64,000 nucleotides of DNA. Source: an uncultured Victivallales bacterium. GTDB lineage: Bacteria > Verrucomicrobiota > Kiritimatiellia > UBA8416 > CAYOBW01. The stretch spans positions 1,968-65,967 of the forward strand of contig CAZKRK010000002.1 of the NCBI GenBank assembly GCA_964555035.1, read 5' to 3'. A model generated the notes under the pieces. That model was not told the DNA's origin, did not search any database, and worked only from the letters and a program-made list of their open reading frames with translations. Shown one piece after another: positions 3,553 through 64,000 of this stretch (its first letter is position 1; every line of letters begins with the position of its first letter). A program made the position numbers and the translations under genes.

Positions 3553-4227
3553 CTACCGTATAAGCAAGACGGTTCCCGGACGGGGCAACGGCTCGAGCTG
3601 AACCCCGGTGATGACCCCGTTGTCGTTGAAGCTGCCTGCTGCCCAGCCAAAGTTCACCTGGCCGTTGTCGACGTTGACAAGCGACGTGGCGTGCGTATGG
3701 CCGACAACATACTCGCCTGTCCACGCGCGGTTTCCCATCGTACCGCTGAGACCCGCGCCGAAAACTCCCGTCAAAGTGCCCGCGCTGTTGTTCCCGACAA
3801 ACCCGTACACGGTCAAACGGTATCTGCCGGGGAGGAGATGCCGGATCGTGATGTCCCCCGGAACGTCGGGCACGGACCATCCGTCGGTCAACAGGGCCGC
3901 GGCATCCCCCGCGAACCCCGGTTCGGTGTCGTGAACGCTGTGTATGATTTGCGCGAACAACTGCAGCGTGACAGGGCTGAGACGGCCGGCACGGTTGGTC
4001 AGGGCAAGCTCGGGGCCCGTGAAGATGTGCCCGGGAGGCAACGCGACACTCAACTCGATCGCGTGCCACGCTCCCGTCGTCCCGGCAGCGGCAAACGCAC
4101 CTCCCGGAGTGCCGGCACCCCCCCCCAGGTCGATATTGAATGCCTGGCCATGGCAGAATGGGGCGACCTGCGCCATGCAGACGAATAGAAACAGCGACAG
4201 TCTTCTCACAGGTTCACTCATCCTCAT
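3553..4227 (-). CDS. Small secreted hypothetical protein (224 aa) whose C-terminus ends ...EPLPRPGTVLLIR
   Basis: Signal peptide MRMSEPVRRLSLFLFVCMAQVAPFCHG; Gly-rich mature region. Its start overlaps the stop of the upstream gene by 4 nt (4224-4227). No family was recognised. Confidence 0.55.
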   Translation of the reverse strand: MRMSEPVRRLSLFLFVCMAQVAPFCHGQAFNIDLGGGAGTPGGAFAAAGTTGAWHAIELSVALPPGHIFTGPELALTNRAGRLSPVTLQLFAQIIHSVHDTEPGFAGDAAALLTDGWSVPDVPGDITIRHLLPGRYRLTVYGFVGNNSAGTLTGVFGAGLSGTMGNRAWTGEYVVGHTHATSLVNVDNGQVNFGWAAGSFNDNGVITGVQLEPLPRPGTVLLIR

Positions 4228-11294: not shown

Positions 11295-14200
11295 TTAGAT
11301 ACTGCCATGATCCGCCCCCCCCCTCCTACGCCCGACCTGGAATGGTCGGTGGAAGCGCAATTCGCGAAGCGTGGCGCCACTACAGGTCACCCGAACCTTC
11401 CGCGCACCAATCGGCTCCGGCAAACGCTGGAGCGTTCCTTCTTGCCTCGAAAGACCGACATAGCCGGAAGCCACCAACTCCCACCCGCCGTTGCGCCATG
11501 CCTCGATCCGATAGCCGGGCACGACGCCTCCTGTTCGTGCCGCATTGATGTAGATCCAATCCGAAGCGAGAGGCACCTCAAATTCGTACACCGCTGTGGA
11601 TGATCCGTTCGTGGCGGAGAATGCCGGCCCGGTTTCGAAGTCGAAGTCGCTCAGGGAGTCGACATCTGCTTCGGTGCCCTTTTCCCCGTTTTTGCTCATA
11701 AGGCTCGGAGTCACAACAGTTGCATCGAGATTCTGACGCGTGAGGTAGGTGCGAAGCAGTCGCTGTTCCCAGAATGACTGTCCCCCAATCTCGATCTCCG
11801 CCTGTAGTCCGGGCGGAAGCACCGCGTAGTCTTCGCGCGGCTCACCGTCCAGTACGCGTTTCATCCCTCCGCCGTTGAGGTCCAGCACGTACCCGTTCCG
11901 CAGCATGAAGCAGGTGCTGTAACGACCGTAGGGTCGCACGAAGTGTCCCTTCAGTCTGAGTGTCAATCCACCCGTATAGTGCTTCTCGTGTATTTGCTCC
12001 CGTCTGGTCGACATGTTCATCACGATCGGTACTTCGTACTTGAACGCCGTCTCGCCGATCCTGTAGTCGCACTTCAATACCAGGTCGGGATCGAGAGACC
12101 TGTCGAACGGGTATCGGGGTCCCTGGCGCCCCTCCCTGTCGGCAAGATCCACAGTGATCGGCTCCCGGAGCATTCTGCGGCTGTGGTCCTCGATTGTCAC
12201 TGTGCCCGTCACGCGAGGAAGGAACTCATCCGTCCTCTCGTTGAAAGCTCCCCTCAGATGATTGAGACGCCTGTTGCAGGCAAGCATGGTGTTGATCATC
12301 AGCGACCCGTCGGGCGCTGGCTTGGCGGTGTTGAGGATCTCCACATTGTATCCGAACGCGAGATGCCGACAGGTCGCTGTTTCCAGAGCCGACAACCCGC
12401 GGACGCGTTTGAGTGCCGCATCGATCCGCGGGCCGTAGTCCCGCGCGATCTCCGCGGCTCGCTCGCCATACTTGCGTGGCGATACGGGCAGTGCTTCGAG
12501 CGCCCGCAACCCTTCCTTGAGCACCGTGGGGCTCTGCTGGCCGAGAAACGCGTCCAGAATGATCCAGCTACGGTGGTAGGTCCGGTGCAAACGCCGGGAG
12601 CTGCGATGCACGAACTGGAAAGGTCTCGCCGATTCGGTCTGATATTCTGCTTTCCCGGTGATGGCCAGATTCCGTTTGCCGGCATTGAGCATGAAGATGC
12701 TGTTGCCCAGGCCGAAAAAGGGCTGCCCCAGCGGCAAGCCACCCAGTGCCATTGACGCGTCGCCGGTGTTGACCCCGAGATACCCGTGGAATGGGCGCTT
12801 GTAGGAGAGCAGCCACTGTATGGCGGTCATCGAATCGATATAGTGTTCCCGGTTTACGTTCGCGGCCGCGGCAGTAGCCCACGTCATCGACAGTTCGCCG
12901 CCGCCATGCGCCTGGTCGCAGTTGCCATAGGGCGGCGTGGTGTAGATGCGTTGCGCCGCTGACCGGAAGGGCTCTGTGCCGCCGCGCAACCGACACGCAA
13001 TGAAGCAGGGCGCATTGCCCAATGCGCCGGCCTGCCCGTGCGACGTCAGCGCATCTCCGGGGTTGTTCCTGTAGAACCCGTCACCGCGGCCATAAGGGAG
13101 TTTTCCCGCCGGCCCGATTTCCGATGCCCGTTCGAGCAGGCGGTCGAGATTGTACATCAGCTCATCATTCTCACCAATCGGCGTGTGCGAGCAGAGCGCC
13201 CAGGCAGCGGCCAATACGCCACTTGGACCAATCCACCCATATCCGCTATAGCCGGGACCGGACTTGTGGCCGGCGAGGTAGTCCGGCTGAAGGTACTTCG
13301 TCAGGTTCAGCGCAAGAAGTTCCAAGCGCCCGAAGATAACGGGGTCCCGTGTACGCAAGTAGTATTCGGCGAGGAAGACCACTTCAAAACTGTCGATGTA
13401 TGTCCATGTCGTTCTTCCGCCATGCTCCGCAACAAAGTAGGCCGCCTTCCTGATCGCGTCGTCATACCCGGGGTCTCCCGTAGCCATGAGTCCCAGTCCA
13501 CACATCGACGTACACAGCGTCGGACCGCTGTACGCCCCCGTTCTCGGGCTCCAGCGCCCATCCTCTTTCTGCTGTTGAAGCAGGCCTAGCGCCAGCATGG
13601 CCGAGTAGTTGCGAACCTTGAGACCGTCGGGGTCAAATTCACGGCCGAACGATCCAGTCCGGTCAACAGGCACCCGCACCTTCTTGATGTACGGCTTCCA
13701 CTGCGCCGGGGGGGTCCATGGCTCTGCCCCTTCGATTACGAATGTGCGGGCCACGCTGTTGTCGACAGCCACCTCCCCCTCCAGGCGCCATTCCCCTTGC
13801 GGAAGGTCCACGATCATGCTCACCGCGGCATCGCGAAGATACAAGCCGCCGTCCCGTGATAGTCCATTGTTTCGCAAAGCCCCCGGCTCGCCGTCCACCT
13901 CTGTCCACGCGACATTCCAGTCTTCAGCGCCCAGCGACACCCCGGACCTGTCGACCAACCTGACGTCGGTAAGCTCCAGCGGCCTATGCTTGGGTGGTTG
14001 TCGACGGCCACGCTCGGTCCGAGCAGCGGGAGCAGGTCTGGGTTCCAGCGATATACGAAACCGGTCGTACCCGGACAGCGACACGGAAAACGGCCCATCC
14101 CCAACAGCGCGATGGAGCGGTTTCCAGGTGCTCGTGCCTTGCAGTCGCACCGGATGCCGCCCACTGTAAAGCGTGAAACACGGATCTACGAACTCCCGCC

Positions 14201-16925: not shown

Positions 16926-17618
16926 CTAGCGGACCAACAAGACCGTTCCCCACAAGGACAGCGTCTCGAGGTGAACGTCGTCGAAGTTGACCTCAAAGAG
17001 GGTGGGCGGCGCTTCGGCGATAAGCCGGATCTCCAGGGATTGTCCAAGCTGCGCGTGAGCATCGTCCGAATCGTAGGTCAACCCGCAGACTTCCCACTCC
17101 CCGGAATCCGGAGTGGGTCCGCTGTCGTAGGCCAGAAGCACGCCACCGGCCAGTAGCTCGATGCGATGATCGCCTTCGGATGCGCCGTTCTCAACCGCAT
17201 TGACAAGAGGGTTGCCCACTTGGACGCTCAGCACGTATCTGGTAAAGGGCCTCAATGTCTCGGACAGGACCTGGCCAAGGCCCACCTCATCCTCTTCACC
17301 ACCACCCCAGTCCTCACCAAAGCTGTAGGCCACGTTTGTGCCTTGAATAGCGCCGGCCGCGTACCCCTCTCCCCCCGTCTCGGGGTGTGCACACCCGGCA
17401 TAGTGGTCCGGACTGGTAGGAAGCCATTCGGAGGGATCTCCCTGCAGTGCATAGTATCCATTGGTCCATCCGGGTGCGCTCTCAGTCCAGTCCCCCTCCT
17501 CGAGCGGCGGATCCTCGAACCCGGCATTCACGATGGCGATGTCATCCGCCCGGCCCCCGCCGACTGAAGCCAGGACAATCACCGCGGCAGAAATCCTCAG
17601 CATGGCCTGTTCCTTCAT
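16926..17618 (-). CDS. Secreted DUF642-like / PEP-CTERM-protein-like hypothetical protein with an abbreviated C-terminus ...FDDVHLETLSLWGTVLLVR
   Basis: Track ORF 16926..17678. The probable start is MKEQAMLRISAAVIVLASVGGGRA (signal peptide) at 17618. The IVNAGFEDP...W start and the FDDVHLE end are typical of DUF642 / PEP-CTERM cargo domains, but no PEP motif or transmembrane tail follows. Confidence 0.55.
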   Translation of the reverse strand: MKEQAMLRISAAVIVLASVGGGRADDIAIVNAGFEDPPLEEGDWTESAPGWTNGYYALQGDPSEWLPTSPDHYAGCAHPETGGEGYAAGAIQGTNVAYSFGEDWGGGEEDEVGLGQVLSETLRPFTRYVLSVQVGNPLVNAVENGASEGDHRIELLAGGVLLAYDSGPTPDSGEWEVCGLTYDSDDAHAQLGQSLEIRLIAEAPPTLFEVNFDDVHLETLSLWGTVLLVR

Positions 17619-17742
17619 GAGTCTCGTCTCCCGTTCAACAGAATGACCGTGCTGCTCATTGTTCGTTTTCCTTCTCATTCCGCCCGGAAAGCCACGGTGG
17701 CGCCCGGCCGAGCGACCGGCGTGGTCAATTGACTGCGTCGTT

Positions 17743-21814: not shown

Positions 21815-24800
21815 TCACTGCTCCACGCTGATACGATAGAATGCGGCGGGAATGCTATCCTGCCCAACCGTGTGAACGTTTTCGGGTGGCGTGGCGGGCA
21901 AGGGACCCGCCTTGGCATCGCCCAGCGGCTGTGCAAGATTCGTCCCCCGCCAGATACGATAGAAACGACCTGACGCACTGTGCCACCTCAAAACACAGTC
22001 CGATCCGCCGGCTTCCAGAGAGTCTATGGAGAAAACGGACATCGCGTTGGTGGGGTCTGTCCCCGCGTACCACTCCTCACGGTTGCTGGCCCCGTCCCCG
22101 TCGCGATCTTCGTCACTGCCGCCGTTTACGGCGTTTGTACTCCCGAAATGCGTGATCTCCCACGTGTCGGGCATACCGTCACCATCCCGGTCGCTGTTGT
22201 CAACTGCTGCCACCCCCGGGGTCGGGCCATTCGTGCTTGCCGCCCAGCTCACGCCGTCATTGGCGTACGCCAACAGTTCGACGCGCAAGAGCGAACTGCC
22301 GCCCCCATCGGGTTCGGTCGGCCACGGCGCTTTGCTATCGTAGTCGACCCACTCGACCGGGATCCACGGGATATCGCCCGTGACGGGATCCGGGTCCCCG
22401 GGGCGTTTGAGGGAGAGCCTTTCACCCGCATTGTTCAGCATGCCCTCATAGGGACTCAGAACACGCGTTCCCGAGGGGACCGTGTACATGTTCGTGAAAG
22501 CCGCGGCATTTGTCGGCGCCACGAGCAGCGTTTCGCCCGCGGCCATCACCACTCCCGTTGGCATGGAAAAGCGAACCGCACCCCGCAACCGCCACGTATT
22601 CGATGGGTACGAAACGTCGTAGAGCGGCACACTGGTGTCCGCCGTGTTGTGCAACTCAATGAATTCAAACGCGTTGCTGTCTGACGGATGATAATGGATC
22701 TCGCTGATTACCACCGGCCCGACCCGCGGGGCGGTATTCCCGCTTCCGGAACTCTGCGCACGCATGGGCGCGAAATCGACGGTGCCGTCGCGGCAAAGGT
22801 GGCGCCCGTACGTCTCGTCGCGCGGGGCCGCCTCGAACTCGCGGTAGTCGCGGTAGCCGGTCATAACCCCGGACTCACCCGAGGTCAGGCAGACGGCATC
22901 CCCCAACTCACTGAAAGCAAAGCCGTTGGTCGCGACGGCATTGGTGCCGAAATGGGCATGTTCGGTCAGCACCGCGTAGCTGCCGGGCAGAATCGCCGCC
23001 ACGTTGCTCACCGCGATCTTCGTTGGTTCGTCCTCGTCGTCGCTGAGAAACCAACCATTGATGTCGAGCGTGTTCGTGCCGGCGTTGTACAACTCGATCC
23101 AGTCACCGGGATTGTCATGGTCCTGGTGCGAGAGCACCTCGTTGATCACCAGGGAATCCGCACTGATGAACGCCTCGGGCGCCCTCCCGGGCGTTCCGCC
23201 CGTTCGGGCGCTGGCACGCCAGGACGAAGCGTTGCTCCAGGCGCCGGCATCGGCCTGGGCGTCGAGAAGCGTAAGCGAGAAATCATCGCCATCTGTCAGA
23301 ACATACCAGTCATCGTCGTAGCGGAAGGACTGGATGGTACGCTCGGCGCCGTCGCGCAGCGCCAGTGTTTCGCCCGCATCGTCGAGCGCACCCGGCAGGA
23401 AGAAGCGTCCCCTGTACTCGCCGGCGATGTTCGTCGTGTGCCAATTCGTGTGACGGCTCTTGAACCCATCGATATCCTGGACAAGAACAACGTACTCGCC
23501 GGGATCCAGGGTGGCGACATCGCCTTCCGTGAAGTCAAAGCGAATGCCGTTGGTGAACGCGATTCCGGCCAGGCCGACGGTCTGTGTTCCCGTGTTGAGA
23601 AGCTCGATGAACTCGTGACTGTTCGCCGTAAGGTTCGACTGCGCCGGACTGGGCGCGGCGGGATGGTACATGATTTCGGTCACGCGCAGAGTGGTAGGTG
23701 TGTCGATGGTAAAGACGGCCTCGGTCAGCGCGCTCCAGACACCTCCGGCGCCAAAGGCGCGGGCCTTGACCACGGTGTTGCGGGTGAGCGGAAGGGGGGT
23801 GCTGTAGAGGGCGCCCGCGATGCCGCCACCTATCGCGCGCGGGTCGCTGCCGTCGAGCGTGTAGTAGACGCTATCCGTGGACGAAATGCTCAGCGCGAAA
23901 CCGCTCGTGAAGAGTCCCCCGTGCTGCGCGAACACAGGCGCCGCCACGCCCGGGTACAACCCCGCTCCCTTCAGTTGGTTTAACACAATCTCTGTTCGGG
24001 ACTCATGAGCAGCCCTGATGTAGTGGTTGAGAATACTGTCAACGACGGGCAGCCAGTCATCGTCGCGCGTGTACGGATTGTGGATAGTTACGGCGTCACC
24101 CCAGCGAGCCGACTCCGCAATGACCGCGAGATCGATTTCGGCTTTGCGCTTGCTGAAGAGCGCTCCAGCGACGTCCGGCGTGAGCACGCCATCATTGAGG
24201 AAATGCCGATGAATGCGATCGGCAAGGCGCATCTTGTACTCGGTATTACCCGTTAGTTTTACATGCAGCCACCAAGGATTGAAGTTCTCTCGTTCGTCGA
24301 GTGACGGACCAAGCTGAACCGAGACACGATTGATGGTAAGGGCATCCGCTTGGCTCACCTCCAGCGAAAACTCCGAATCGTGGGCGATATACTGGAAACC
24401 GACCGGGTCGTTGCGATTGAACACCGCGATACAGTTGCGAGGCTGATCGACTGAGCCGGGAGGCCCGAGTGGTGAATCGCGGTTACCGGTGTAGAAGACG
24501 GTCAGCATGTAATCTATCACGTTGTCGACGTCAAGATAGCAGGGGTAGTCGGGGTTGCGTGTACCGTCCGCGTTCATGCCCTGCAGCCGGAAGTAGACGG
24601 CATTATCGGTGACCCCGTCGTCGATCCCATCCCTGAACCGACCGCAATAAGCGTTCGTAGTGCCATCTGCCGCATACATCCGCCCCGAGCCGGCGTCCGC
24701 CTTGACCGTGTCGTAGTCATCGGAATCGCCGCCGAAGTAGGATTCGCCGAAGCGTGCATCGGGGCGTTCCTCGGACTGGTACAGCCCCCAGTACACCCCG

Positions 24801-26764: not shown

Positions 26765-26773
26765 CTCCGGTAC

Positions 26774-27450
26774 TTATGGCATTGACACTTCAAGTCGATA
26801 GTAGCGCTTGGGCACGGCGTTGGTGTCGATCATCATGTCATTCGTGCCGGATCCCGGCCGCGGGCCCTGCCCCAATATGTTGTCCCAGTTGGTCTGCATC
26901 AGGTCATCAATGAACTGCAGGACATACACCCGTCCCGTACTGGAATCGAAACGGACCGCCATGGAATTGGTCACCAGCAAACCCGTCAGACGGAGGTAGG
27001 AATTGGAGTCGGTTGGGTCCGTATCCGCAATGTACTCCTGAAGGTCCGAGTGTGGGTCACTGTCATGGGCCGTCGTGTCGTTGGCGTTGGTTGTGCTGCC
27101 CCAATACAGCAGCTCCCACGTATCGTCTATGCTGTCCCCGTCATCGGGCGGAAAGCCACCCGCATCTACTGTAAACCCGAAGTTGAGGTTCCCGACCCAG
27201 CAGCAGTTGGCGCCGGATTCCTCGGTGATGGTGCAGACGGTCTGCGGCGCGGTGAACACGTAATTATCGACGTCGGCGCCCAGACTATCACCGCCCACGC
27301 TCCAGGTACCCGAACTGAACCAGTCGAAATCAAGTCCCGTAAACCCGGCAAATGTCAGGCCGGTGGTCTCCGTTGCGGCAGCCCCATTCAGGCCGTAAAC
27401 CGCATTGCTCACTGAAAAGACCAAAGTCTCGTAGCTGTCGATGCGTTTCG
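26774..27450 (-). repeat. Direct DNA repeat (about 0.7 kb, high identity) encoding the C-terminal domain plus the end of the last module. The closest copy is at 32138-32830. Lower-identity copies lie at 36994-37450, 43486-43930 and 50250-50700.
   Basis: By eye, 27100-27300 and 32480-32700 are about 90% identical or better (example shared string: ccagcagcagttggcgccggattcctcggtgatggtgcagacggtctgcggcgc). The antisense ORFs in the track are near-duplicates: 27075..27263 versus 32376..32636, both ending QQQLAPDSSVMVQTVCGAVNT, and 27166..27351 versus 32539..32724. Confidence 0.7.
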
Positions 27451-30400: not shown

Positions 30401-31408
30401 CGCGTTGGTGTAGGCCCATCCGCCAACCGGTTTCTCTATGACATCCCACTCCAGCGTCACGGTGGTATTCGTCGGAGGATCCACGTACAGAGATCCCACA
30501 GCCAACGCATTGGACGTGGTGATCGTCTCGTTGGATACCGCCGCGCTATCCCAGCGCAAGTAGAGATCGTCCACCCCCATGTCTTTTGTATCGGCAATCC
30601 ACGCGTCCATCAGTGCCCGCATCTCATCGACCCTGGTCTGGTGTTCCACCGCATCGATGAGGTTGGTGACCTCATGCGGGTCAGTCAACGTGTCGTAGAA
30701 CTCCTCGTCCGGCTTGGGACTCGTGAAGAAAAGAGCTTGGTCCGCATTGAGTTGCCCAAGGTCGAACATCTCCAGCATAGTCGGCCGCATCGGTCGGTGC
30801 GACCTGATGTAGCCGCAGTCCCAGTACCCCAGCTCCGGCTTGTAGTTACGGATGTATTTGTAGCGGGTATCTCTAACGCTCCTGATTATGTCAGTGACTG
30901 AGTCGACCCTATCGCGTGCACCGTAGATATGGGTGCGTGGAACCGCATTGGAACCAATGAATGGGTGCCCGTCGTACCAATCCGGCACCTCCACCCCCGC
31001 GATATCCAGAATGGTCGCCGTCACATCAATCTGACTGAGCAGGTTCGTGTCGGTCGTGCCGGGTGCCAAATGCCCCGGCCAGCGGATGACAAGCGGCACG
31101 CGCATTCCATAATCGTAGAGCCAGGTTTTGCCACGCAGGTGACAGATCCCATTGTCACCCATGAAGATCACGACCGTGTTGCTGGCGATACCCTCGCTCT
31201 CGAGACGATCAAGGATCTCGCCAACCTGGGCATCCATGTACTCCATGGCATCCAGGTAAAGCGCCCAGTCGTCGCGGACGACCGGATGGTCTGGATAAAT
31301 AGGCGGGAACACGACCTCATTAGTGCTGACAGGGTCCGCCGATGCATCGCGGTACGGCTGCCAGCCGGCACCGTCATGCCGGTGCGTGGCAGTCAGCGTG
31401 ATCTGGGC

Positions 31409-31413
31409 AAAAA
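31409..31413 (-). other. Frameshift site: T5 homopolymer on the coding strand (AAAAA on the plus strand). The paralog implies T6.
   Basis: Frame N reads cag ccg ttt ttg ccc aga tca cgc tga. Frame C reads cca gcc gtt ttt gcc cag atc acg. Only about 10 codons are open in both frames, and they bracket the run. Confidence 0.6.
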
Positions 31414-36979: not shown

Positions 36980-36993
36980 ATCTTCTGATTCTC

Positions 36994-40011: not shown

Positions 40012-40120
40012 GTTTCGAATTGCTCGTACTTGATATGCTATTCTGTGCTTCACCTTTCCCGTCCTGTTAATCATCTTTTCTCAGCGAATCATTACTTCAC
40101 CCAAACTTCCGCACAAACCA

Positions 40121-43468: not shown

Positions 43469-43485
43469 GTCGGTCTCTATGATGC

Positions 43486-50190: not shown

Positions 50191-50249
50191 ATCTACTCTC
50201 TGCTATGGCTCTGAAATCCCGATCCTGAGCTCCCGCACAGGACTTGAAG

Positions 50250-56192: not shown

Positions 56193-58211
56193 TCATCTCA
56201 CCATCAGGACCATGCCCTCGGGCTTGGGCGGAACGTCGCCGGTCGTGGAGACCTCGAAGACAACATTCCCGAACCGGAACCTGCCGCCCGGCATCGAATC
56301 CACGACCAGCACGTCGGGTTTGGTGCTGAAGGTCACCGCGTCGGAGCCCGAGACCGTTTCGCCGCCGATCACCGCCGTCGTGAAGGGCCCGCCCGCGCCG
56401 CCCCAATTGAGCACGCTGCCCCGCACGAATCCGCGGAAGCTCCCCGTCCCGCTGGGGCCGCCGTTCAGCGAATACGTGACTTCACCTGGCGTGAACGTCA
56501 GGCGCTCGCCGTTCTTGTAGTCGATCCGTAAGGCATCGCCGGGGCCCATGATCCAATGGGCCGTGCTGACAGGAACATCCACCACGACGTTGGCACGGAT
56601 GTCGCAGTTCCCCCCGTCCTCGCGCTCTCCCGTCATCGTCATGTCCCAGGTCATGCTGTCGTTGGCGAAGCCGACGTCGTCGAGCGTGGCATTGGTAAGT
56701 ATGAACGTCCAGGTCACGGAGGAAGTGGGCGCCGACGCGGTCGGCAGTTTGACACCCGAAATCGCCACCGTACCGTTGTCTGCCACCGTCGAGAACTCGC
56801 CCCAGGGCTCGTCGCTGGTCTCCGCCTGAAACTCGGTAATCGTGATGTAGTCCGCGTATCTCGCTCCCGTGGGCGGATCGTCCTGCTGGTAGTTCATCAA
56901 CGCGCCGTCGGCCGCGTAGCCAAAGACGGCGGCGTGGTAGGTCGTGTTCGTGGTAAGGCCGGTAACTTCGACGCTTGCGCCGGTGCCGGAAAAGACGACG
57001 TAGGCGTCCCCGAGCTCTGTGCCGAGACTGCCGTATCTCGCATTCGTCGCGTAGGTCGTGTCGTCCTCCGGCACCCCTGTCGGCGCGGGCCCCTGCCGCA
57101 CGAGCACCAGGCTCCCGTCGCAACCCGCGTTCGTCGTCCAGGAAACCGTCATCGAGGTGTCCGTGAGCGAGGTAAGCGCAACACCCGAGGCCTGTATGGG
57201 CTCTGTCAGGAAGCTGCTCTCGTTGGTCGACCAGACGACGCCTTCCGCCGCGTTGCTGGCCCAGCCGAGGAAGTTGTACACCGTTCCGACGACAAGGCCG
57301 GTTACCGTGCCTGAGTACACCTTGGGCGGCGGAATGGTCGGCGAGTCCACGATGACATGCATGTTCGTCGTCACGTCACCCGGCAGGTGCCAGCCGATGC
57401 CGTAGTTCGTGATGCCCGCTCCCGACTGGATCGTGGCGCCCAGCGTCGCTGAGGCGGTCGAGATGTCCGCCGCGGTCAGCGTGTCGACGACGATGTCCGT
57501 GATAGGCGCATTCGTGCTGACCTGGAAATCGATGTCATAGAGGCGACATCTCTGATTCCGCGTGCCCACCTGCCCGCTAAGCCATTCCGCCCGGAGGGCT
57601 TTGGCGCCATGCAGGTCCACATCGCCCGTCCCGGCAGCCGTGGACGTGGTCAGCCCACCATCCAGGGTCCACGCGGAACCACCGGTCTTGTGCCGGTGCG
57701 TCATCGCCGTGGTGAACCCCACAAAAGACCCGGTGTTCGTCACGCCGCCGTCAATCGTGTAGGTCACCGGCCCGGCTATGAACTCCAGGACTTCCCCCGC
57801 GTTGATCAGGTTGTCCCCGGTATCGCCGGCGGACTTTACACCGAACTGGCCGTCGGGTCCCGCCGTATGGACGACCGGGCTCGACAATCCCCCTGCCTGG
57901 CCGAAGGGAGCCAACGACGCGGCAAGCGTGATGGTCCACGTCATGGTATCGTCGTCGTCCCCCACGGTGCCGCCGAGGTTCGCGTTGGTCAGGCTGAACG
58001 TGTAGACGACAACCGGGTCGGTGTCCAGAGCGCCCGCCGTCACCTGGTTCGTCAGCGTGCCCACGTTGTCACTCGTGGCGTAAGCCCCGTCATTCCCCGA
58101 GTCCCAGTCGGAGACCGTGACGGTCGCCGCGCCGGCCTGCAGTGCGAGTGCGAATAGCCCGACCGTCAGGCCGACGCCAAGTCTAAGTCCAAATGTATGC
58201 ATCCGATTCAT
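56193..58211 (-). CDS. Secreted protein (about 672 aa) with two copies of the novel ~170-aa module flanking an fn3-like domain. The C-terminus ends ...PPKPEGMVLMVR.
   Basis: Track ORF 56193..58268. The probable start is MNRMHTFGLRLGVGLTVGLFALALQAGA (signal peptide) at 58211. Module example: SVTWTFILTNATLDDVGFANDSMTWDMTMT...ERLTFTPGEVTYSLNGGPSGTGSFRGF. fn3-like block: SMTVSWTTNAGCDGSLVLVRQGPAPTGVPEDDTTYA...TTYHAAVFGYA. Confidence 0.65.
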   Translation of the reverse strand: MNRMHTFGLRLGVGLTVGLFALALQAGAATVTVSDWDSGNDGAYATSDNVGTLTNQVTAGALDTDPVVVYTFSLTNANLGGTVGDDDDTMTWTITLAASLAPFGQAGGLSSPVVHTAGPDGQFGVKSAGDTGDNLINAGEVLEFIAGPVTYTIDGGVTNTGSFVGFTTAMTHRHKTGGSAWTLDGGLTTSTAAGTGDVDLHGAKALRAEWLSGQVGTRNQRCRLYDIDFQVSTNAPITDIVVDTLTAADISTASATLGATIQSGAGITNYGIGWHLPGDVTTNMHVIVDSPTIPPPKVYSGTVTGLVVGTVYNFLGWASNAAEGVVWSTNESSFLTEPIQASGVALTSLTDTSMTVSWTTNAGCDGSLVLVRQGPAPTGVPEDDTTYATNARYGSLGTELGDAYVVFSGTGASVEVTGLTTNTTYHAAVFGYAADGALMNYQQDDPPTGARYADYITITEFQAETSDEPWGEFSTVADNGTVAISGVKLPTASAPTSSVTWTFILTNATLDDVGFANDSMTWDMTMTGEREDGGNCDIRANVVVDVPVSTAHWIMGPGDALRIDYKNGERLTFTPGEVTYSLNGGPSGTGSFRGFVRGSVLNWGGAGGPFTTAVIGGETVSGSDAVTFSTKPDVLVVDSMPGGRFRFGNVVFEVSTTGDVPPKPEGMVLMVR

Positions 58212-58433
58212 CGTCCGTCCCCCAGTTTCTTCCGCAGCCAATCCCGTTCGCCGTAACACAGTTGACACCTTTTTCCTCGTTGCAGGCCGGTACCCCTTTG
58301 CGCGGATAGCCTCTATTTAAGGCGAAACACGCTACCGTCCTTGTGCGTAGTCGTAACCACCGTCAGATTGTTCAGATCGGTCAGAAACATACCGATGATG
58401 CAATGCTTGCTAAACATGCCATCCCCTCCAAGG

Positions 58434-61400
58434 CTATTTAACAATGAACAGCGTCGGTGCGGCGAAGCGCTTCACCTCGACCTTAGTCGTCGTGTACCGT
58501 GGCTCATACCGACCCGTGGCGCTTCCGTTCTCCGTGAGGTCGCTGAATGTGCCGCTGATCGTGCCGCCGGACTCTATGACCGTGACCCACTCCCCGTACG
58601 GCAACTCGCTGATTTCGTTCAGGTCCAGCACCGCACTCGCGCCAATCGTGACGTCATTGGTCACATTCAGCAAGTCCCAGGAAGAACTGCCGGTCCAATC
58701 CAGATCGACACTCAGCGTGCCCGCGAGCACGACAGCAATGCTGTTGCTCACGTTCAGCGTGGCAACCGTGCCCGTGTCCCCGACCGCCAAAGTGGCGCCA
58801 TTCGTAACCGTCAGGCTCGCGTAGTTTGTAACCGAACCGTATCCGGTGCCGTTGCCGGAGAGATACAGCATGCCGTTGGGCACGTCGACGTAGATCGTGC
58901 CGTCCGTGGGTGCCGACCATGGACAACTGTGAAGAGCGGGATCGCCGTTCGCCACGTCAACACGGCTTGTGAGCGCGCCCGAGACAGTCAACGTATCAGC
59001 ATAAACGGCAACTCGACCGCCACCACCGGATCCGCCATCCCGTGAGGCCGTGGTGCTATCGCCCCCCGCGCCGCCCCGCGTGCCCACCAGAGCCGAAGCG
59101 CCAAGATTCACCGTGTCCGCGCTAAGCAGGATGCCGCCACCCGATCCGCCTCCGCCACCGCGCCTCGTGTTGCAGTAATGTCCGGACCCGCCATCGGCAA
59201 GCAGTGATGCATCGAGGGTTATCGTGCCGACCGCTGTCAATTCAATGGTTCCGCCACCGCCGGCGCCTGCGCCATCATTGGCATTGTCGTTGCCGGCGTC
59301 GTATTTCCCGGTGCCACCGCCCGATCCGCCCAAAAGATCAGTGAGCTCCATGTCGCCGTACGTGTAGGTCGCCGATTCCGCGCCGCCTACGCCGCCGTAA
59401 CTGCCACCGTCACCCGGCTCATGGTTGGTTTCCTGCCCTTTTCCGCCACCGTAGCCCTCGCCGTCATCCACCGACACATCGCCGCCATCGCCGGCGGTGG
59501 AAATTGGCGGGGCGCTGCCCAGCGACGATCCCCGCACGCCACCTTCCGCGCCCGGACCACCTTCTCCGGGTTCGTTCGCGGGCCAAACCGAGACAGTCGC
59601 ATCTGTCCCGGACACGTCTATGTCAGACGCAATGCTGATGTCGCCGGTCGACCCGATCACGAGCCCCAGGTTACCGGTGACCGTGATGGTCACTCCCGCG
59701 CCAATATTGACATCGTCGAAGTTGTACAATGCCAGCATGACATCACCACTCTCGTTGAGCACATCAACGCCCACGCCCATCGGTATCCCGTTTGTGGCGA
59801 CCATCGCATTGCCACCGCTACCGGTATCGAAAGTAATGCTGGTTATGCCTGCGCCCAGACTCCCGAGGGTGGCGTAGGCGGTCGGATCGAAAATCGATCC
59901 ACTGGGCCCACCCGTCGTGGTCTCGTTCGCTGCCTGCGCTGCGTCCTGCTGATAGTTGGTCAGCCCGCCGCCAGTCGCATAGGCGTACACCGCCACGTGG
60001 TATGTCCCGCCAGGATTAAGCCCCGTGACGCCCACCGGGCTGCCGCCGGATGCGCCGGCATAAACGACATAGCCGTTGCCTAGCGAATCGCCAAATCCAT
60101 ACACTGAATTCCCAGTGTAAGTGGTCCCGTCCACCGGTCCAAAGGAAGGTGCCGACCCTGCCCGCATGATGACCACAGCCCCGTCGGCAGTCGCATCATC
60201 CGTCCAGGCTACGGTAATCTCGTTGTGCCCGACCACCGTCAGCGCAAGCCCCGAAGCCTGTATGGGCTCGGTTAGAACTGCGCCTTCAGACGCGCTCCAG
60301 TTCGTTGTACCGTCGTAGGCAAACCCACGGAAGTTATAGAGCGTGCCCTCCGTCAACCCGGTGCGCTCATGCATGAACGCCCTGCTGGCACCCGCGGTCA
60401 GGTTGCTCACGATAGCCAGCGAATTCGTCGAACCGGTCGTGTAGTAGCCCGTACCGTACTTGCTGACGGCCAGCGCGCCCGCCGCGGCTGTCGCGCCAAT
60501 GTTGGCAGTGGTGCTCTCCACCGCCCCGGTAGTCAGGCTGTATACCGTCGTGGGCGGCACGTTCGTATCGCGAACCTGGAATGCCGAGAGCGGGCTCTGG
60601 AGGCTCATGTCGAAGGCCACGCGCGCATTCGTGCCTAGGGCCGTGAATTCGCCCACGATCGCGTACGCCGGTACGTTCGAAACGGCCACGCTGTTGCCCG
60701 ACCCCAGATGCGCGATCGTAGAAGTGGGGTACGAACTCTCAGCGTGGAAGAGCTGCACGCGGTATACTTCACCCGAGGTCAACCCCGTCAGCCTCAGCGT
60801 CGGGTCCGTACGGCCGGTGCCACTGTACATGCCCGTGTCGAGCAGTTCATCCATGGCGCTGCTGACCGGGGGCTCTATAGCCTCGTCATACAAACCGTTG
60901 GCGCCATAATAGTCAGGCGATCTCCACACCGGATCGCCCGTCGTATCTTCCGTGAAGATGACGCCGTTCACCGCGAAGTCGCCCGAGGCCCCGTCCGACA
61001 GATTGCGCGCACCCTGAGAGGTCAGCGTCCCCGACAAGTTATCCAGCACAATGCTCTCGCCGTTCGTCGCGTGCTGCTCGGCCGACCATGTGATGCCACC
61101 CGGCGTGAGCTGACTGCCCGTGCCGGCGGTTTCCTGGTAGTTGGTCATGCCCACGCCGACCACGTAGCTGTAGACCGCCGCGTGATAGGTCACGCCGTCC
61201 GCAAGTGCCGTCACGGCCACGTTCGTCGCCGTGCCACAGTAGACCACCTGCTGCCCGCCGATGCTGTCGCCGGTCATGGCATCATCGTATGCCGTCACGG
61301 CATCTGTGTAGTCCGCGTTATCCGTCGGAACCCCGGTGACCGCGGCATTCTGCCTCAGAAGGACCAGGCTGCCGTCCGTGCCGGCATTCGTCGTCCAGGA

Positions 61401-64000
61401 GATCGTCATCGATTCATGCGTGATCGACGAAAACGACACGCCGCTGGCCGGGGCCGGTTCCGTCAGGAAACTTCCTTCCTCCGTCGAGTACCGGATGCCG
61501 TACGTGGCATTGCTCGCCCAACCGCGGAAGTTGTACAGCGTGCCTCCGTTCAAGGAACTCACGGCACCCGTGTAGACCAGCGATGGCGCGGCCGGCCCAG
61601 TTCCAATGGTCACGTCGGTCGTCGCCCCGGAGGGCTCGTAGTAGGCCACACCGTAGCTGTCGATCGGGTATCCCGAGGCGACGGTTGCCCCCAGTACGGC
61701 GGTGTCGGAATCAACAGAGACCACATACGGATCAACCGTTTCGCCAGGCCCATCCGCAGGTGGCACGGTGCTGAGCGTAAAATCGATATCCTGGATCCGA
61801 AGTCGGTGGTAATTATGGTTACTAGTGTCCTGAATCGACCACTCCATCTCCAGAATGGACGTGCCAGTCAGGTCCCTGGTGCCGCTCGTCCATGTATTGG
61901 AGGTGATCCCGCCATCGTACGTCCAGTACTTTGAACTGTTGTTCTGAGCGAAGAGATACGCTTGATCGAATCCGACGAACGATCCGAAATTCGTCGCTCC
62001 GCCATTAAGCGTATAGGTCACCGTCCCGGGGGTGATAAACAGCGTCTCGGCGTTTCTTATCAGCCGGTCGTTTCCGTCAGAGTCCGACCTGACGCCAAAG
62101 TAGTCATGCTCAGAACCTACTGGGCCGGCCGCGGAAGCGACGGCATTTCCCGTGAGCGACGCAGCCCTCACGGTCATGGTCATCGTCACCGTATCGTTGG
62201 AAACGGCATCGCCCTCAAGATCCGCGTCCGGAATAGTGAAGGTGTAGACAACCGTGTCGTTGGTGTCCAGCGCGCCCGACGTCAACGAGGTAGCCAGCGT
62301 ACCGATACTGGAGACCGCGTTCGAGGGAACGCCATCGAACTCGGTAATGGTTACAGTCGTTTCAAGCACACCGATTCCCTGAACGTTCACGTTCGTCGGG
62401 TCGTCGTCCGGATCGTCCGAGTTGATCACCAGAGTGCTGGAATGCGTGAGGCCCGTGACGCCGCCCGGCGCATACTCGATAGTGAAGCTGGTGGTCCCTC
62501 CCGCCGGGACTTCGATATTCGGCGGCGGCGCGGAGACAACCGAGAAGTTGGCCGCATCGTCTCCCGAGAACACGATGTTCGTGAGATACAACGACAAGAC
62601 GCCCGGGTTCGCGTTGCTCACGACCACGCTGAACGTTCCGGTTGAGTTCTCGCCGACATCGCCGAAGTCCACTGGCGTCGTCAGGACCACGATATCCGGC
62701 GTCCCAGGATTCACGCCCTCGCCCTGAACCGTGATGTTGGTCGGGCTGTTCGCGCTATCCGTAGAGAGAATGCTCATCAGCGCCGAGTCGGCGCCCAAGG
62801 TTGAGCCGGGAGCGAACTCGACGGTGATATCCGCCGTTGCTCCGGCAACCACCAGCAATGGAGCTACCGTCGCAGGTTCGTAGAACTTGACGTTATCGAA
62901 CGTAATATTCGTAACGATCACGTTGCCAGGCCCCGAGTTGGTTACCGTCACGATACCGGTATCGGTCGTGTTGGTGGCAACCTGACCAATGTCCATCGTG
63001 GCGCCGTTGACAATAGCGATGCTCGGCGTGCCCGGATCGAGTGTAATCTGTGTGGCTCCATAAGTGAGCGTGTAGCCGGCCGGCATGTCGTTCGTCGCCG
63101 CGAATTCGCCTGTCAGTTGGCCGGAGGCGTACTGCGCAATCACATGCGTATCGACATCCGGCGTCGTGATGGCATCGAAGTCGATCGTGGCGGCACTGAT
63201 GTCCAGCGCGCCTGTCACGGTCAGTGTGTCCTCAGATCCTGTTCCGGTGCCGTCCACGTCCACAAAGAGCGTACCCGCGATCGTAACGGTCGCCGCGTTG
63301 CTAACGGTCAGCGTAGCAATCGCGCCCGCGCCGCCAATCTCCAGGCTCTGGTTGCTGGCTACGCCCAGGCTGGTGTAGTTGCCGTACGCATTCGACGCAG
63401 TGCCTGCGCCACTCATCGAAAAGGCGCCGCCCAGCACATCGCTAAGCACGCTGCCGTCCGCGCCTTGGGAAATGGAGGAGTTATACCCCGGATCTCCTAC
63501 CCCGCCGCCGGCGCTTGTGGTACCGGTGACAATCGCCGCACCGCGAAGCACGATACGGCCGCCACCGCCGCCGCCGGATCGATTGAGTGTGGTGTCGCCG
63601 CCCTGCGCGCTGGCAGTCGCCCCGCTCATCGTCAAGGTCCCGGCCCCATTCAAGTCCGAATCCGCCAACAAGCGAATAGCGCCACCCGATCCTGCACCAC
63701 CCGAGCGAGCAGTGGCTCCCGAGTTCGCGGCTCCACCATCACTGGAAATCGTCACACCATTGTCCACGGTGATGTTGTTGAGCGCGATAAGCTGGATAGC
63801 GCCACCACCGCCTGCACCGGTGCCCCGCTCGCCGCCGCCGCCGCCGCTGCCCGCGACCGGACCGCTAGCCGTGCCCAGTTCGCCGAGGTCAAGACGTCCA
63901 TACGCGTCGCCACCCGCATGCGCGAAATTGTTGCTGGAATTGAACACTCCATCACCACCATCGCCGCCGAAAGCGCCGCCGCCGCCGCCGCGATAGTCAT
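58434..64000 (-). CDS. Giant secreted protein, 5'-partial (more than 1855 aa; the N-terminus lies beyond the window end). Layout: Gly-rich / autotransporter-associated beta-strand region + ASH domains + novel module + fn3-like x2 + 'ITW' domain. The C-terminus ends ...APTLFIVK.
   Basis: The track shows an M at 63947, but that codon is GTG and the frame stays open to 64000 (...DYRGGGGGAFGGDGGDGVFNSSNNFAHAGG...), so the protein continues upstream. ASH example: PDIVVLTTPVDFGDVGENSTGTFSVVVSNANPGVLSLYLTNIVFSGDDAANFSV. fn3-like blocks: ESMTISWTTNAGTDGSLVLLRQNAAVTGVP and EITVAWTDDATADGAVVIMRAGSAPSFGP. Confidence 0.7.
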   Translation of the reverse strand, partial: DYRGGGGGAFGGDGGDGVFNSSNNFAHAGGDAYGRLDLGELGTASGPVAGSGGGGGERGTGAGGGGAIQLIALNNITVDNGVTISSDGGAANSGATARSGGAGSGGAIRLLADSDLNGAGTLTMSGATASAQGGDTTLNRSGGGGGGRIVLRGAAIVTGTTSAGGGVGDPGYNSSISQGADGSVLSDVLGGAFSMSGAGTASNAYGNYTSLGVASNQSLEIGGAGAIATLTVSNAATVTIAGTLFVDVDGTGTGSEDTLTVTGALDISAATIDFDAITTPDVDTHVIAQYASGQLTGEFAATNDMPAGYTLTYGATQITLDPGTPSIAIVNGATMDIGQVATNTTDTGIVTVTNSGPGNVIVTNITFDNVKFYEPATVAPLLVVAGATADITVEFAPGSTLGADSALMSILSTDSANSPTNITVQGEGVNPGTPDIVVLTTPVDFGDVGENSTGTFSVVVSNANPGVLSLYLTNIVFSGDDAANFSVVSAPPPNIEVPAGGTTSFTIEYAPGGVTGLTHSSTLVINSDDPDDDPTNVNVQGIGVLETTVTITEFDGVPSNAVSSIGTLATSLTSGALDTNDTVVYTFTIPDADLEGDAVSNDTVTMTMTVRAASLTGNAVASAAGPVGSEHDYFGVRSDSDGNDRLIRNAETLFITPGTVTYTLNGGATNFGSFVGFDQAYLFAQNNSSKYWTYDGGITSNTWTSGTRDLTGTSILEMEWSIQDTSNHNYHRLRIQDIDFTLSTVPPADGPGETVDPYVVSVDSDTAVLGATVASGYPIDSYGVAYYEPSGATTDVTIGTGPAAPSLVYTGAVSSLNGGTLYNFRGWASNATYGIRYSTEEGSFLTEPAPASGVSFSSITHESMTISWTTNAGTDGSLVLLRQNAAVTGVPTDNADYTDAVTAYDDAMTGDSIGGQQVVYCGTATNVAVTALADGVTYHAAVYSYVVGVGMTNYQETAGTGSQLTPGGITWSAEQHATNGESIVLDNLSGTLTSQGARNLSDGASGDFAVNGVIFTEDTTGDPVWRSPDYYGANGLYDEAIEPPVSSAMDELLDTGMYSGTGRTDPTLRLTGLTSGEVYRVQLFHAESSYPTSTIAHLGSGNSVAVSNVPAYAIVGEFTALGTNARVAFDMSLQSPLSAFQVRDTNVPPTTVYSLTTGAVESTTANIGATAAAGALAVSKYGTGYYTTGSTNSLAIVSNLTAGASRAFMHERTGLTEGTLYNFRGFAYDGTTNWSASEGAVLTEPIQASGLALTVVGHNEITVAWTDDATADGAVVIMRAGSAPSFGPVDGTTYTGNSVYGFGDSLGNGYVVYAGASGGSPVGVTGLNPGGTYHVAVYAYATGGGLTNYQQDAAQAANETTTGGPSGSIFDPTAYATLGSLGAGITSITFDTGSGGNAMVATNGIPMGVGVDVLNESGDVMLALYNFDDVNIGAGVTITVTGNLGLVIGSTGDISIASDIDVSGTDATVSVWPANEPGEGGPGAEGGVRGSSLGSAPPISTAGDGGDVSVDDGEGYGGGKGQETNHEPGDGGSYGGVGGAESATYTYGDMELTDLLGGSGGGTGKYDAGNDNANDGAGAGGGGTIELTAVGTITLDASLLADGGSGHYCNTRRGGGGGSGGGILLSADTVNLGASALVGTRGGAGGDSTTASRDGGSGGGGRVAVYADTLTVSGALTSRVDVANGDPALHSCPWSAPTDGTIYVDVPNGMLYLSGNGTGYGSVTNYASLTVTNGATLAVGDTGTVATLNVSNSIAVVLAGTLSVDLDWTGSSSWDLLNVTNDVTIGASAVLDLNEISELPYGEWVTVIESGGTISGTFSDLTENGSATGRYEPRYTTTKVEVKRFAAPTLFIVK

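Follow-up and report, generated by a model that had tools for sequence, protein, structure and literature searches.

Organization of the locus

The window analysed here, a 64,000-nt stretch of DNA from an uncultured Victivallales bacterium, contains four genes, all on the minus strand, whose products end in closely similar short peptides: GTVLLIR, GTVLLVR, GMVLMVR and PTLFIVK. These tails and the proteins which bear them (hereafter, cargo) are as follows.

3553..3585, minus strand: tail 1 plus stop, P-R-P-G-T-V-L-L-I-R-TAG.
3553..4227, minus strand: cargo 1, a 224-aa exported protein with no Pfam domain and a signal-peptide-like N-terminus, MRMSEPVRRLSLFLFVCMAQVAPFCHGQA (4141-4227).
16926..16958, minus strand: tail 2 plus stop, S-L-W-G-T-V-L-L-V-R-TAG.
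16926..17678, minus strand: cargo 2, an HpiC1-like (PF22825) jelly-roll protein, the likely start of which is the signal peptide MLRISAAVIVLASVGGGRA (17547-17603).
56193..56225, minus strand: tail 3 plus stop, K-P-E-G-M-V-L-M-V-R-TGA.
56193..58211, minus strand: cargo 3, a 672-aa protein with an fn3/Pur_ac_phosph_N-like domain, two copies of an unnamed domain and the signal peptide MNRMHTFGLRLGVGLTVGLFALALQAGA (58128-58211); the mechanical ORF start is a GTG at 58268, while public gene calls give 669-672 aa.
58434..58466, minus strand: tail 4 plus stop, R-F-A-A-P-T-L-F-I-V-K-TAG, the Lys-type flavour.
58434..64000, minus strand: cargo 4, the C-terminal 1,855 residues of a beta-helix/Ig-like giant protein with a choice-of-anchor D domain, HYDIN-like Ig domains and PATR repeats, the N-terminus of which lies outside the window.

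The original prediction, which listed these four endings and regarded them as a shared C-terminal feature, was accurate in its observation: the C-termini read ...EPLPRPGTVLLIR (stop 3553-3555), ...ETLSLWGTVLLVR (16926-16928), ...VPPKPEGMVLMVR (56193-56195) and ...RFAAPTLFIVK (58434-58436), each in the frame of a long ORF. Its description of the four cargo as unrelated was slightly overstated, as proteins 3 and 4 share a 425-aa internal region at 44% identity and a related signal peptide, although their tail-proximal domains do differ. Additionally, protein 4 runs off the window; the full-length protein (P0092) comprises 3,328 aa and starts with the signal peptide MTRMHTLGRRLGLGMVVALLALASAAQA.

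Enrichment and recurrence of the tail

A comparison of the motif's frequency with controls had been put forward in advance as a means of challenging the prediction, and its outcome was strongly favourable. Among all six-frame stop-to-stop segments of at least 60 aa in the window, only 5 end in [VLIFM]4[RK], and 4 of these are the genes described above. Given the window's own amino-acid composition, the strict motif has a chance of about 2e-6 per protein, and the probability of finding at least 4 among 22 genes is about 1e-19, or about 4e-11 even for the loose motif. The strict motif occurs 0 times among 4,490 six-frame ORFs of at least 100 aa in 1.22 Mb of control loci from Planctomycetota, Verrucomicrobiota and Lentisphaerota, but 4 times in the 64-kb window and 8 times in 69 kb of the marine relatives. 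As no genome-wide census was made, this enrichment is shown for loci rich in secreted proteins rather than for a proteome. The same contig was assembled independently from at least 10 samples, which argues against an artefact.

We collected 23 distinct tails on differing cargo, including jelly-roll lectin-like, LamG, discoidin, Ig-like and giant beta-helix proteins. These occurred in the window, in two co-occurring marine relatives, in a 23-kb ENA contig with three consecutive tailed genes, in a Victivallales MAG, and in lake and other metagenomes. In keeping with the criteria for small C-terminal sorting signals set out by Haft (bioRxiv 10.1101/2023.06.07.544157), the tail lies at the extreme C-terminus and occurs several times per organism on otherwise unrelated proteins: four times in the window, 2+2 times in two loci of one relative, and in 3 consecutive genes in the locus we label L165. 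Every tailed protein with a clearly complete N-terminus (about a dozen) has a signal-peptide-like start.

The consensus of the 23 tails is P(-8) G(-7) T(-6) V/L(-5) L/F(-4) L/I(-3) V/F/I(-2) R/K(-1)-COOH. T/M is found at -6 in 22 of 23 tails, G at -7 in 18 of 23 and P at -8 in 14 of 23, while exactly four hydrophobic residues are present in all 23 and a single R or K is always the last residue. The length from T to the C-terminus never varies.

A degenerate DNA pattern for P-G-T-V-[LF]-[LF]-[VIM]-R-stop returned 3 chance hits in viral contigs and 61 hits in metagenome contigs, of which only about 5-6 lie at the end of long ORFs. This search was useful in spotting the tail in other habitats, although the collection did not include the source contig and gave no abundance estimate, and one of the hits (L148, 153 aa) contains only the first 55 positions of a GDPD domain and may be a fragment. 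With respect to taxonomy, the nearest named genome is a MAG labelled Planctomycetota (77% identity in GH95, but GC of 0.49 against 0.60), while all other hits lie at 38-55% identity across the three phyla. Full-text literature searches found no description of such a tail.

Conservation and domain context

The conservation of the stop codons in related genomes, a further point named beforehand as a test, was confirmed. Orthologues at 77% (P0002, of protein 2), about 46% (P0077, of protein 3) and 45% (P0094, of protein 4, in locus L158) identity keep the tail and the stop, while linkers and codons diverge. P0002 ends ...LPGTVLLVR, P0077 ends ...DSGGMFLLVR-TAG and P0094 ends ...LLAAPTVFIFK-TAG. 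Orthologue pairs differ in codons (AGA/CGG, GTG/GTA, ATT/ATC) and in the linker, yet keep the pattern (V to F, M to L, L to V), indicating purifying selection. As codons differ between tails and the downstream sequences are unrelated, we rejected a DNA-level repeat as the source of the similarity.

More distant homologues carry other elements in the same slot. Of the 71 homologues of the HpiC1-like cargo 2 other than P0002, 26 have PEP-CTERM-like tails, 14 have another TM-plus-basic tail and 2 have the FYRx domain. Among homologues of the beta-helix end module, we noted 9 short tails, 4 PEP-CTERM signals and 3-4 FYRx domains. The only relative of cargo 1 outside its own cluster, P0075 (63% identity), diverges exactly after ...QLEPL and carries a roughly 70-aa ...RRYYRVLGEIQ domain of the FYRV type instead of the tail. 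Homologues of protein 3 which match only its fn3/Pur_ac_phosph_N region (Pfam annotation PF16656 on nearly all of them; one is named Paraflavitalea) carry T9SS type A domains.

The FYRV-type domain, which also ends seven giant proteins in this window, is predicted to be a folded beta-sandwich of about 70 aa (AlphaFold2 pLDDT 82). It has no Pfam or NCBIfam match, and a Foldseek comparison of the model against the PDB returned no significant neighbour, the best being a generic fn3-like sandwich (E 0.1). Its function, like that of the tail, is unknown.

The tail is not the last strand of the preceding domain. In protein 2, PF22825 (E 9e-36) covers residues 46-238 of 250 and profile positions 2-174 of 174, and is thus complete 12 residues before the end. 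In the AlphaFold2 model (pLDDT 89.7 overall), the last strand ends at residue 216 of 225, and the tail, at a pLDDT of about 52, is not packed onto the fold. This low value may partly reflect that only 2 of 47 alignment rows contain the tail.

The prediction was also to fail if relatives carried full PEP-CTERM tails, which would have indicated local truncation, and this was not seen: only distant homologues (30-45% identity) carry them. Nothing resembling a TM helix plus Arg cluster is encoded downstream of any stop in any frame. Adjacent genes start within 0-30 nt for tails 1-3; the GH29 gene following tail 1 starts about 15 nt downstream, leaving no room for a longer tail. TAG, TGA and TAA all occur as the stop, and we thus rejected read-through, frameshift and recoding. 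Taken with the length and terminal residue common to 23 independent tails, the diverged codons of orthologues, the domain boundary 12 residues upstream and the chance probability given above, these results effectively refute the view that the tails are non-functional remnants or artefacts, be they decayed PEP-CTERM tails cut by nonsense or frameshift mutations, stop-codon read-through, the last strand of the preceding domain or chance, despite a superficial similarity to the start of PEP-CTERM.

Comparison with known C-terminal signals

The closest known counterpart is the PEP-CTERM/exosortase (XrtA/EpsH) sorting signal (PF07589, TIGR02595). Like the tail, it sits at the extreme C-terminus of Sec-exported proteins, occurs many times per organism on unrelated cargo of the same classes (HpiC1/DUF642-like, PATR beta-helix, LamG, Ig-like), starts right after the last folded domain, and begins similarly, with Pro, a small residue, Thr and then hydrophobic residues. 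A contracted PEP-CTERM (signature P-x-P-G-T, a four-residue hydrophobic stub and one basic residue), still recognized and cleaved by an exosortase-family or other membrane-embedded transpeptidase, was therefore considered. A locally built PEP-CTERM HMM aligns the tails to positions 4/7-13, 'VPEP-a-t-l-l-L-l', and one PEP-CTERM from a control locus, ...VPEPGTVVLAIAAML...RR, is almost identical in its first eight residues to PPPGTVLLVR. The tail and PEP-CTERM also share a slot in two cargo families.

However, several results weigh against this reading, which we consider unlikely. The HMM scores reach only 2-6 bits, which is not significant. The four proteins gave no PEP-CTERM hit at E<=1, and the isolated tails none at E<=10 in Pfam or NCBIfam, where no sorting-signal model detected them, while two positive-control PEP-CTERM tails scored 30.0 and 36.9 bits against PF07589. 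The Glu of PEP is absent from most tails, the conserved motif being P-G-T, and one terminal basic residue replaces the Arg cluster. The four hydrophobic residues cannot span the membrane, whereas 13-19 residues separate PEP from the basic cluster in 28 PEP-CTERM examples, a variable spacing which also contrasts with the tail's fixed distance to the C-terminus. Lastly, V/I/F make up 63% and A/G/S/T 1% of the tail core, against 21% and 41% in PEP-CTERM hydrophobic segments, which are rich in L/A/G (Fisher p = 7e-12 and 1e-13), and the core differs even from the first four PEP-CTERM residues (p = 7e-5). Such a composition fits a beta-strand rather than a helix.

The search for an exosortase, archaeosortase or rhombosortase gene, suggested in the original prediction, was not extended to whole genomes. 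In the approximately 170 kb of DNA from tail-bearing organisms which we examined, none of the Pfam annotations is a sortase, exosortase, rhomboid, CPBP or S41 protease. No canonical PEP-CTERM was seen in about 155 kb of tail-bearing contigs, but as only about 0.9 would be expected from the control rate, this says nothing on mutual exclusion. Among neighbouring genes, a conserved 126-aa ORF follows protein 3 (43% identity between relatives), but it has no family match and occurs at one locus type only, while pseudopilin genes in a further locus, L168, are generic for these phyla.

Other small C-terminal signals (LPXTG/sortase, PGF-CTERM/archaeosortase, GlyGly-CTERM/rhombosortase, and the MYXO-, JDVT-, Synerg- and CGP-CTERM/myxosortases) share the general concept of a short C-terminal signature on otherwise unrelated exported proteins of one lineage. 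They are defined by a signature motif, a TM-length hydrophobic segment and a basic cluster. The tail, at 7-8 aa, lacks two of these three parts, having only a motif followed by a four-residue stub and one basic residue.

The T9SS type A C-terminal domain (PF18962, TIGR04183, Por_Secre_tail) is likewise a C-terminal signal on Sec-exported surface or secreted proteins, and its last strand (...KKLMIMK, ...TQLIKQ or ...GIFLLNR), a hydrophobic run capped by K/R/Q at the very C-terminus, is superficially like GMVLMVR. However, it is a folded beta-sandwich of roughly 70-100 aa, known from the Bacteroidota/FCB group, while here only 7-8 residues lie beyond the last domain, none of the four proteins gave a PF18962 hit, and the nearest genomes are Planctomycetota, Verrucomicrobiota and Lentisphaerota.

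The C-terminal beta-signal of outer-membrane beta-barrel proteins (BAM substrates) is also a short motif at the very C-terminus, read as a beta-strand by a receptor through beta-augmentation, but it alternates hydrophobic and polar residues and ends in an aromatic residue, usually Phe. The tail has four consecutive hydrophobic residues and ends in Arg/Lys, and its cargo are soluble-domain proteins of the jelly-roll, Ig-like or beta-helix kind.

Recognition of free C-termini by PDZ-type domains or tail-specific proteases (Prc/Tsp, CtpA, DegS) depends on an exact register to the carboxylate, with the last 4-6 residues bound as a strand, and is the mode of reading we propose below. The known ligands of these readers end in a hydrophobic residue, not Arg/Lys, a point against our own reading, and none is known as a lineage-wide tag on surface proteins; no PDZ protein was found or tested here. 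A periplasmic stability or processing tag, read by a C-terminal processing protease or quality-control factor as a degron or as protection against one, would fit the exact register and the unstructured tail. We nonetheless consider this very unlikely, as it explains neither the replacement of bona fide anchoring signals (PEP-CTERM, T9SS domain) in homologues nor the restriction to adhesin-like or lectin-like cargo, the sulfatases and glycoside hydrolases identified in the same loci lacking the tail, and as the terminal basic residue is atypical for Tsp/Prc-type recognition.

An autonomous mini-anchor, in which the four hydrophobic residues dip into a membrane leaflet or LPS and the terminal Arg/Lys pairs with phosphate groups without a protein partner, would be consistent with a hydrophobic core, a basic cap and surface-type cargo. 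It appears similarly improbable: four residues give very little binding energy for proteins of up to 3,328 aa, and neither the conserved P-G-T nor the preference for beta-branched and aromatic residues, with near-exclusion of Ala and Gly, is explained.

Interpretation

Our preferred explanation, held with moderate confidence, is that P-x(0-1)-[GAP]-[TM]-[VL]-[LF]-[LIFM]-[VIF]-[RK]-COOH is a functional, lineage-restricted C-terminal tag on Sec-exported, non-enzymatic surface-type proteins (lectin-like, Ig-like and beta-helix adhesins of polysaccharide-utilisation loci). Occupying the slot of PEP-CTERM, T9SS or FYRV C-terminal domains in homologues, it most likely does the same job, directing or tethering cargo to the cell envelope or surface. 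Without a membrane-spanning segment, it cannot work as a stop-transfer anchor for an intramembrane sortase. After complete Sec export, the flexible, Pro-Gly-preceded tail would most likely be read from its free C-terminus, as a five-to-six-residue beta-strand capped by Arg/Lys and the carboxylate which docks by beta-augmentation into an as yet unidentified periplasmic or outer-membrane receptor or enzyme.

The analysis itself demonstrates the recurrence, conservation and fixed register of the tail, its position outside the folded domain, the signal peptides of its cargo and its interchangeability with known sorting signals, whereas we infer from position and cargo its sorting or anchoring function, the beta-strand and free-C-terminus mode of recognition, and the existence of a partner. 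There is no experimental evidence of localisation, cleavage or binding, and the conserved P-G-T looks like a cleavage-type signature motif, fitting a sortase-like enzyme as well as a receptor. The interpretation originally offered, a compact C-terminal recognition tag rather than chance, is supported by those of its tests which we ran, though our data do not choose between its alternatives of a sorting signal and strand complementation.

More tentatively, the tag may represent a transmembrane-less sorting system, in which previously unknown periplasmic or outer-membrane machinery, and not a sortase-type intramembrane enzyme, reads the eight residues from the free C-terminus and delivers or tethers giant adhesins and lectin-like proteins to the surface of uncultured, polysaccharide-degrading bacteria of the Planctomycetota-Verrucomicrobiota-Lentisphaerota group, where it would have displaced PEP-CTERM/exosortase.

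Every small C-terminal sorting signal described so far relies on a membrane-spanning helix which parks the substrate next to an intramembrane sorting enzyme. A conserved eight-residue tag which replaces such signals without any helix implies either an unrecognized way of reading sorting signals or an unknown envelope machine. In practical terms, the motif is a simple regular expression which would flag surface-displayed proteins in such metagenome-assembled genomes, it gives a handle for finding the machinery by phylogenetic profiling and, if portable, it would be an unusually small display or secretion tag. It occurs in abundant but uncultured marine degraders of sulfated polysaccharides, the surface biology of which is largely unknown.

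Occurrence of the tail and its genomic setting

The four C-termini described in the original prediction exist exactly as given there, on the minus strand and in the frame of long ORFs. Among all six-frame stop-to-stop segments of at least 60 aa in the window, only five end in four hydrophobic residues plus Arg/Lys, and four of those are these genes. Enrichment over chance across the proteome had been put forward in advance as a criterion; it is strong here, though shown for loci rich in secreted proteins and not for a proteome: given the amino-acid composition of the window's own genes, the strict motif is expected about 2e-6 times per protein, and four or more occurrences in 22 genes have a probability of about 1e-19. 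The strict motif is absent from 4,490 six-frame ORFs of at least 100 aa in 1.22 Mb of control loci, while it occurs 4 times in the window and 8 times in 69 kb from marine relatives.

The window is part of a 71.6-kb marine metagenome contig which was assembled independently from many samples. It is one long, co-directional minus-strand gene array of polysaccharide-utilisation type (whole window; L173 629-1774) behind an AraC-type regulator with a periplasmic-binding domain. It encodes GH95, GH29, GH59 and two GH43-like enzymes, several sulfatases, a thioredoxin-like (AhpC/TSA-thioredoxin) protein and a DUF6288 protein, as well as seven giant proteins and the four tailed proteins. In our reading of the enzyme families, this content would fit the breakdown of a sulfated, fucose-containing polysaccharide. 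The nearest named genome is a MAG labelled Planctomycetota (77% identity in GH95); the other 79 best loci are 38-55% identical, and most are labelled Planctomycetota, Verrucomicrobiota or Lentisphaerota.

Directly downstream of protein 3, the third of the tailed proteins, lies a further ORF of 126 aa. It is conserved at 43% identity in the relative (...VEFGPPFEMPLTFALPCG), has no signal peptide and no Pfam family, and is called as a gene in several public assemblies:

55811-56191, minus strand: 126-aa ORF in the window
11921-12313 of locus L158: its counterpart in the relative

Position of the tail relative to folded domains

The tail is an appendage rather than part of a domain. In protein 2, the HpiC1-like profile (PF22825) is matched end to end by residues 46-238 of 250, leaving TLSLWGTVLLVR outside it. 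An AlphaFold2 model built on 47 homologues is confident (mean pLDDT 89.7), and its jelly-roll ends about nine residues before the C-terminus. The tail itself sits at pLDDT about 52 without packing, although only two rows of the alignment contain it and this evidence is weak on its own. The tail also follows the end of the last recognisable module in the LamG protein of locus L007, in the discoidin-type proteins of loci L015 and L147, and in the beta-helix giants.

Recurrence on different cargo and in other organisms

A co-occurring relative has four more tails, on a 784-aa Ig-like protein ending ...EPEAGTLFIIK, a 1,215-aa LamG protein ending ...LSPATLFIFK, the protein 3 orthologue ending ...SGGMFLLVR and the protein 4 orthologue ending ...AAPTVFIFK. 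A 23-kb ENA contig (L165) has three consecutive genes ending PPTLFLLK, QGTVCMFH and LPGTVLLVR. The middle one, a 259-aa protein lying between two tailed genes, ends ...YEQGTVCMFH and is a variant of the tail with Cys in the core and His as the last residue:

9026-9805 of L165, plus strand: 259-aa protein with the variant tail

An exhaustive HMMER search with the last 200 residues of protein 4 found 21 relatives, nine of them ending in the tail. A Victivallales MAG has ...RIPPPGTVLLVR after a discoidin-like repeat, which was the only tail in 1.24 Mb of loci from the three phyla. A degenerate DNA pattern found further cases at the ends of long ORFs in a lake hypolimnion and other metagenomes, including two adjacent genes in locus L148. 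One of these two ORFs contains only the first 55 profile positions of a GDPD phosphodiesterase before a LamG-like end and the tail, and may be a fragment or a fusion. In locus L168, prepilin-type (pseudopilin-like) genes and a sigma-54 two-component pair lie a few kb downstream of the tailed protein P0095, which itself looks split by a frameshift:

696-1157 of L148, minus strand: tailed ORF with partial GDPD match
8582-9525 of L168: prepilin-type genes and sigma-54 two-component pair
1592-2014 and 2029-4080 of L168: the two parts of P0095

Consensus and signal peptides

Twenty-three distinct tails yield a consensus in which no tail varies in length.

Table. Residues at each position of the tail, counted from the C-terminus (counts of 23 tails).
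Position Residues
-8 P 14
-7 G 18
-6 T 18, M 4
-5 V 15, L 7
-4 L 14, F 9
-3 L 9, I 8
-2 V 13, F 4, I 3
-1 R 18, K 5

Two covarying flavours can be distinguished, G-T-V-L-L-V-R and [AP]-T-L-F-I-[VF]-K/R (xTLFIxK), and both occur in the window and in the same genome. Leu at -5 goes with Phe at -4, usually Ile at -3, and often a terminal Lys:

58434-58457: tail of the [AP]-T-L-F-I-[VF]-K/R flavour
3553-3576 and 16926-16949: tails of the G-T-V-L-L-V-R flavour

Every tailed protein with a clearly complete N-terminus starts with a signal-peptide-like sequence, as judged by a simple heuristic and by eye rather than with a dedicated predictor. Several tailed proteins share a conserved signal-peptide family, M-[NT]-R-[IMV]-H-T-[FL]-G-x-[RK]-L-G-x-G-x-x-V-x-L-x-A-L, which may only reflect paralogy or may be a dedicated export route; proteins 1 and 2 have unrelated signal peptides. 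The family was seen in:

58128-58211 of the window: N-terminus of protein 3
P0092: full-length protein 4
P0094: orthologue of protein 4
L007, 6713-
L158, 9839-

Selection on the peptide

Whether the stop codons hold in relatives, or whether local truncation had shortened a longer signal, had been raised beforehand as a means of testing the tail. The orthologue of protein 2 (77% identity) keeps the tail and the stop. The orthologues of proteins 3 and 4 (about 45% identity) have different linkers and many synonymous and conservative changes inside the tail (AGA/CGG, GTG/GTA, ATT/ATC, V to F, M to L), yet the pattern and the stop position are kept. All three stop codons are used. No frame downstream encodes anything like a helix plus Arg cluster, and for tails 1-3 the next gene starts within a few bases. 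The tail is under selection as a peptide, and truncation, read-through, recoding and DNA-repeat explanations are therefore rejected.

Relation to known sorting signals

The tail sits in the slot of known sorting signals. Of 71 other homologues of protein 2, 26 end in a PEP-CTERM-like tail, 14 in another TM-plus-basic tail, and 2 in a domain ending FYRAV, all of which start a few residues after the conserved ...FDDVRL. Relatives of the beta-helix end-module end in the short tail (9), a canonical PEP-CTERM (4) or a domain ending [FY]YR[IV] (3-4). Homologues which match only the fn3/Pur_ac_phosph_N region of protein 3 carry T9SS type A domains; one is named Paraflavitalea. Protein 4 contains a 'choice-of-anchor D' domain. 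The cargo are lectin-like, Ig-like and beta-helix proteins, while the glycoside hydrolases and sulfatases identified in the same loci lack the tail.

The 63% orthologue of protein 1 (P0075) is collinear up to ...QLEPL, and then carries a roughly 70-residue domain ending RRYYRVLGEIQ instead of PRPGTVLLIR. The same kind of domain ends the seven giant proteins of the window (1,028-2,238 aa by stop-to-stop ORF length; CotH, LTD, sulfatase-Ig and other modules):

21815-26773, minus strand: giant protein
26774-31420, minus strand: giant protein
32138-37012, minus strand: giant protein
36994-40080, minus strand: giant protein
40121-43495, minus strand: giant protein
43486-50202, minus strand: giant protein
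50250-55469, minus strand: giant protein

In these proteins the shared domain of about 70 aa reads ...SYFRLTGL..AV.FDSSTGRVY..QFIDDL...W.NVPGQGPR...ND.MIDTN...QR.YR.EVS.P up to the stop and follows TSP3-like DTDPTDSNS repeats. It has no Pfam or NCBIfam match, and AlphaFold2 gives a small beta-sandwich (pLDDT 82) with no significant neighbour in the PDB. As it replaces the short tail in P0075 and ends homologues from other organisms, it looks like a second, unnamed 'anchor choice' domain.

The tail is not a member of the known signal families. Small C-terminal sorting signals are defined by a signature motif, a TM-length hydrophobic segment and a basic cluster, whereas the tail has a signature (P-G-T), four hydrophobic residues and one basic residue. 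PF07589 scores 30-37 bits on control PEP-CTERM tails and finds nothing on the short tails at E<=10; NCBIfam finds nothing either. A locally built PEP-CTERM HMM aligns the tails to 'VPEP-a-t-l-l-L-l', but with only 2-6 bits, and we treat this resemblance as a lead, possibly a trace of origin, and not as membership. The four-residue core is 63% V/I/F and 1% A/G/S/T, against 21% and 41% in PEP-CTERM hydrophobic segments (p about 1e-12), and it also differs from the first four PEP-CTERM residues (p = 7e-5).

Discussion

The suggestion in the original prediction that these endings form a compact C-terminal recognition tag, rather than a chance resemblance, is supported by our results. While the recurrence, the conservation, the fixed register and the shared slot were observed directly in the sequences, the mechanism is inferred. 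Without a membrane-spanning segment, the tail cannot, in this view, hold the protein in the inner membrane for an intramembrane sortase, and the whole protein should therefore reach the periplasm. The invariant register to the C-terminus, the beta-prone core, the Pro-Gly break before it and the terminal Arg/Lys fit a short edge strand presented on a flexible stalk and read from the free C-terminus by beta-augmentation. We take a functional sorting or anchoring tag read in this way as the most likely mode, albeit with no more than moderate confidence.

The main rival is a miniaturised PEP-CTERM which is still cleaved by an exosortase-type enzyme. We consider it rather unlikely, although the conserved P-G-T would suit either reading. 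A search for exosortase homologues had been suggested at the outset, but only about 170 kb from tail-bearing organisms was covered and their genomes were not searched for the machinery; the Pfam annotations on those contigs show no sortase-like enzyme, which proves nothing at this sampling. The absence of canonical PEP-CTERM there is likewise uninformative, as only about 0.9 would be expected. Stability tags, autonomous mini-anchors and artefacts are less likely still.

Neither the literature searched nor two curated HMM libraries gave a description of this tail. C-terminal sorting tags as such are established; what is new here is one, its sorting role being inferred, which lacks two of the three parts by which all the described ones are defined. 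Its two flavours, both present in the same genome, might address two receptors or two fates.
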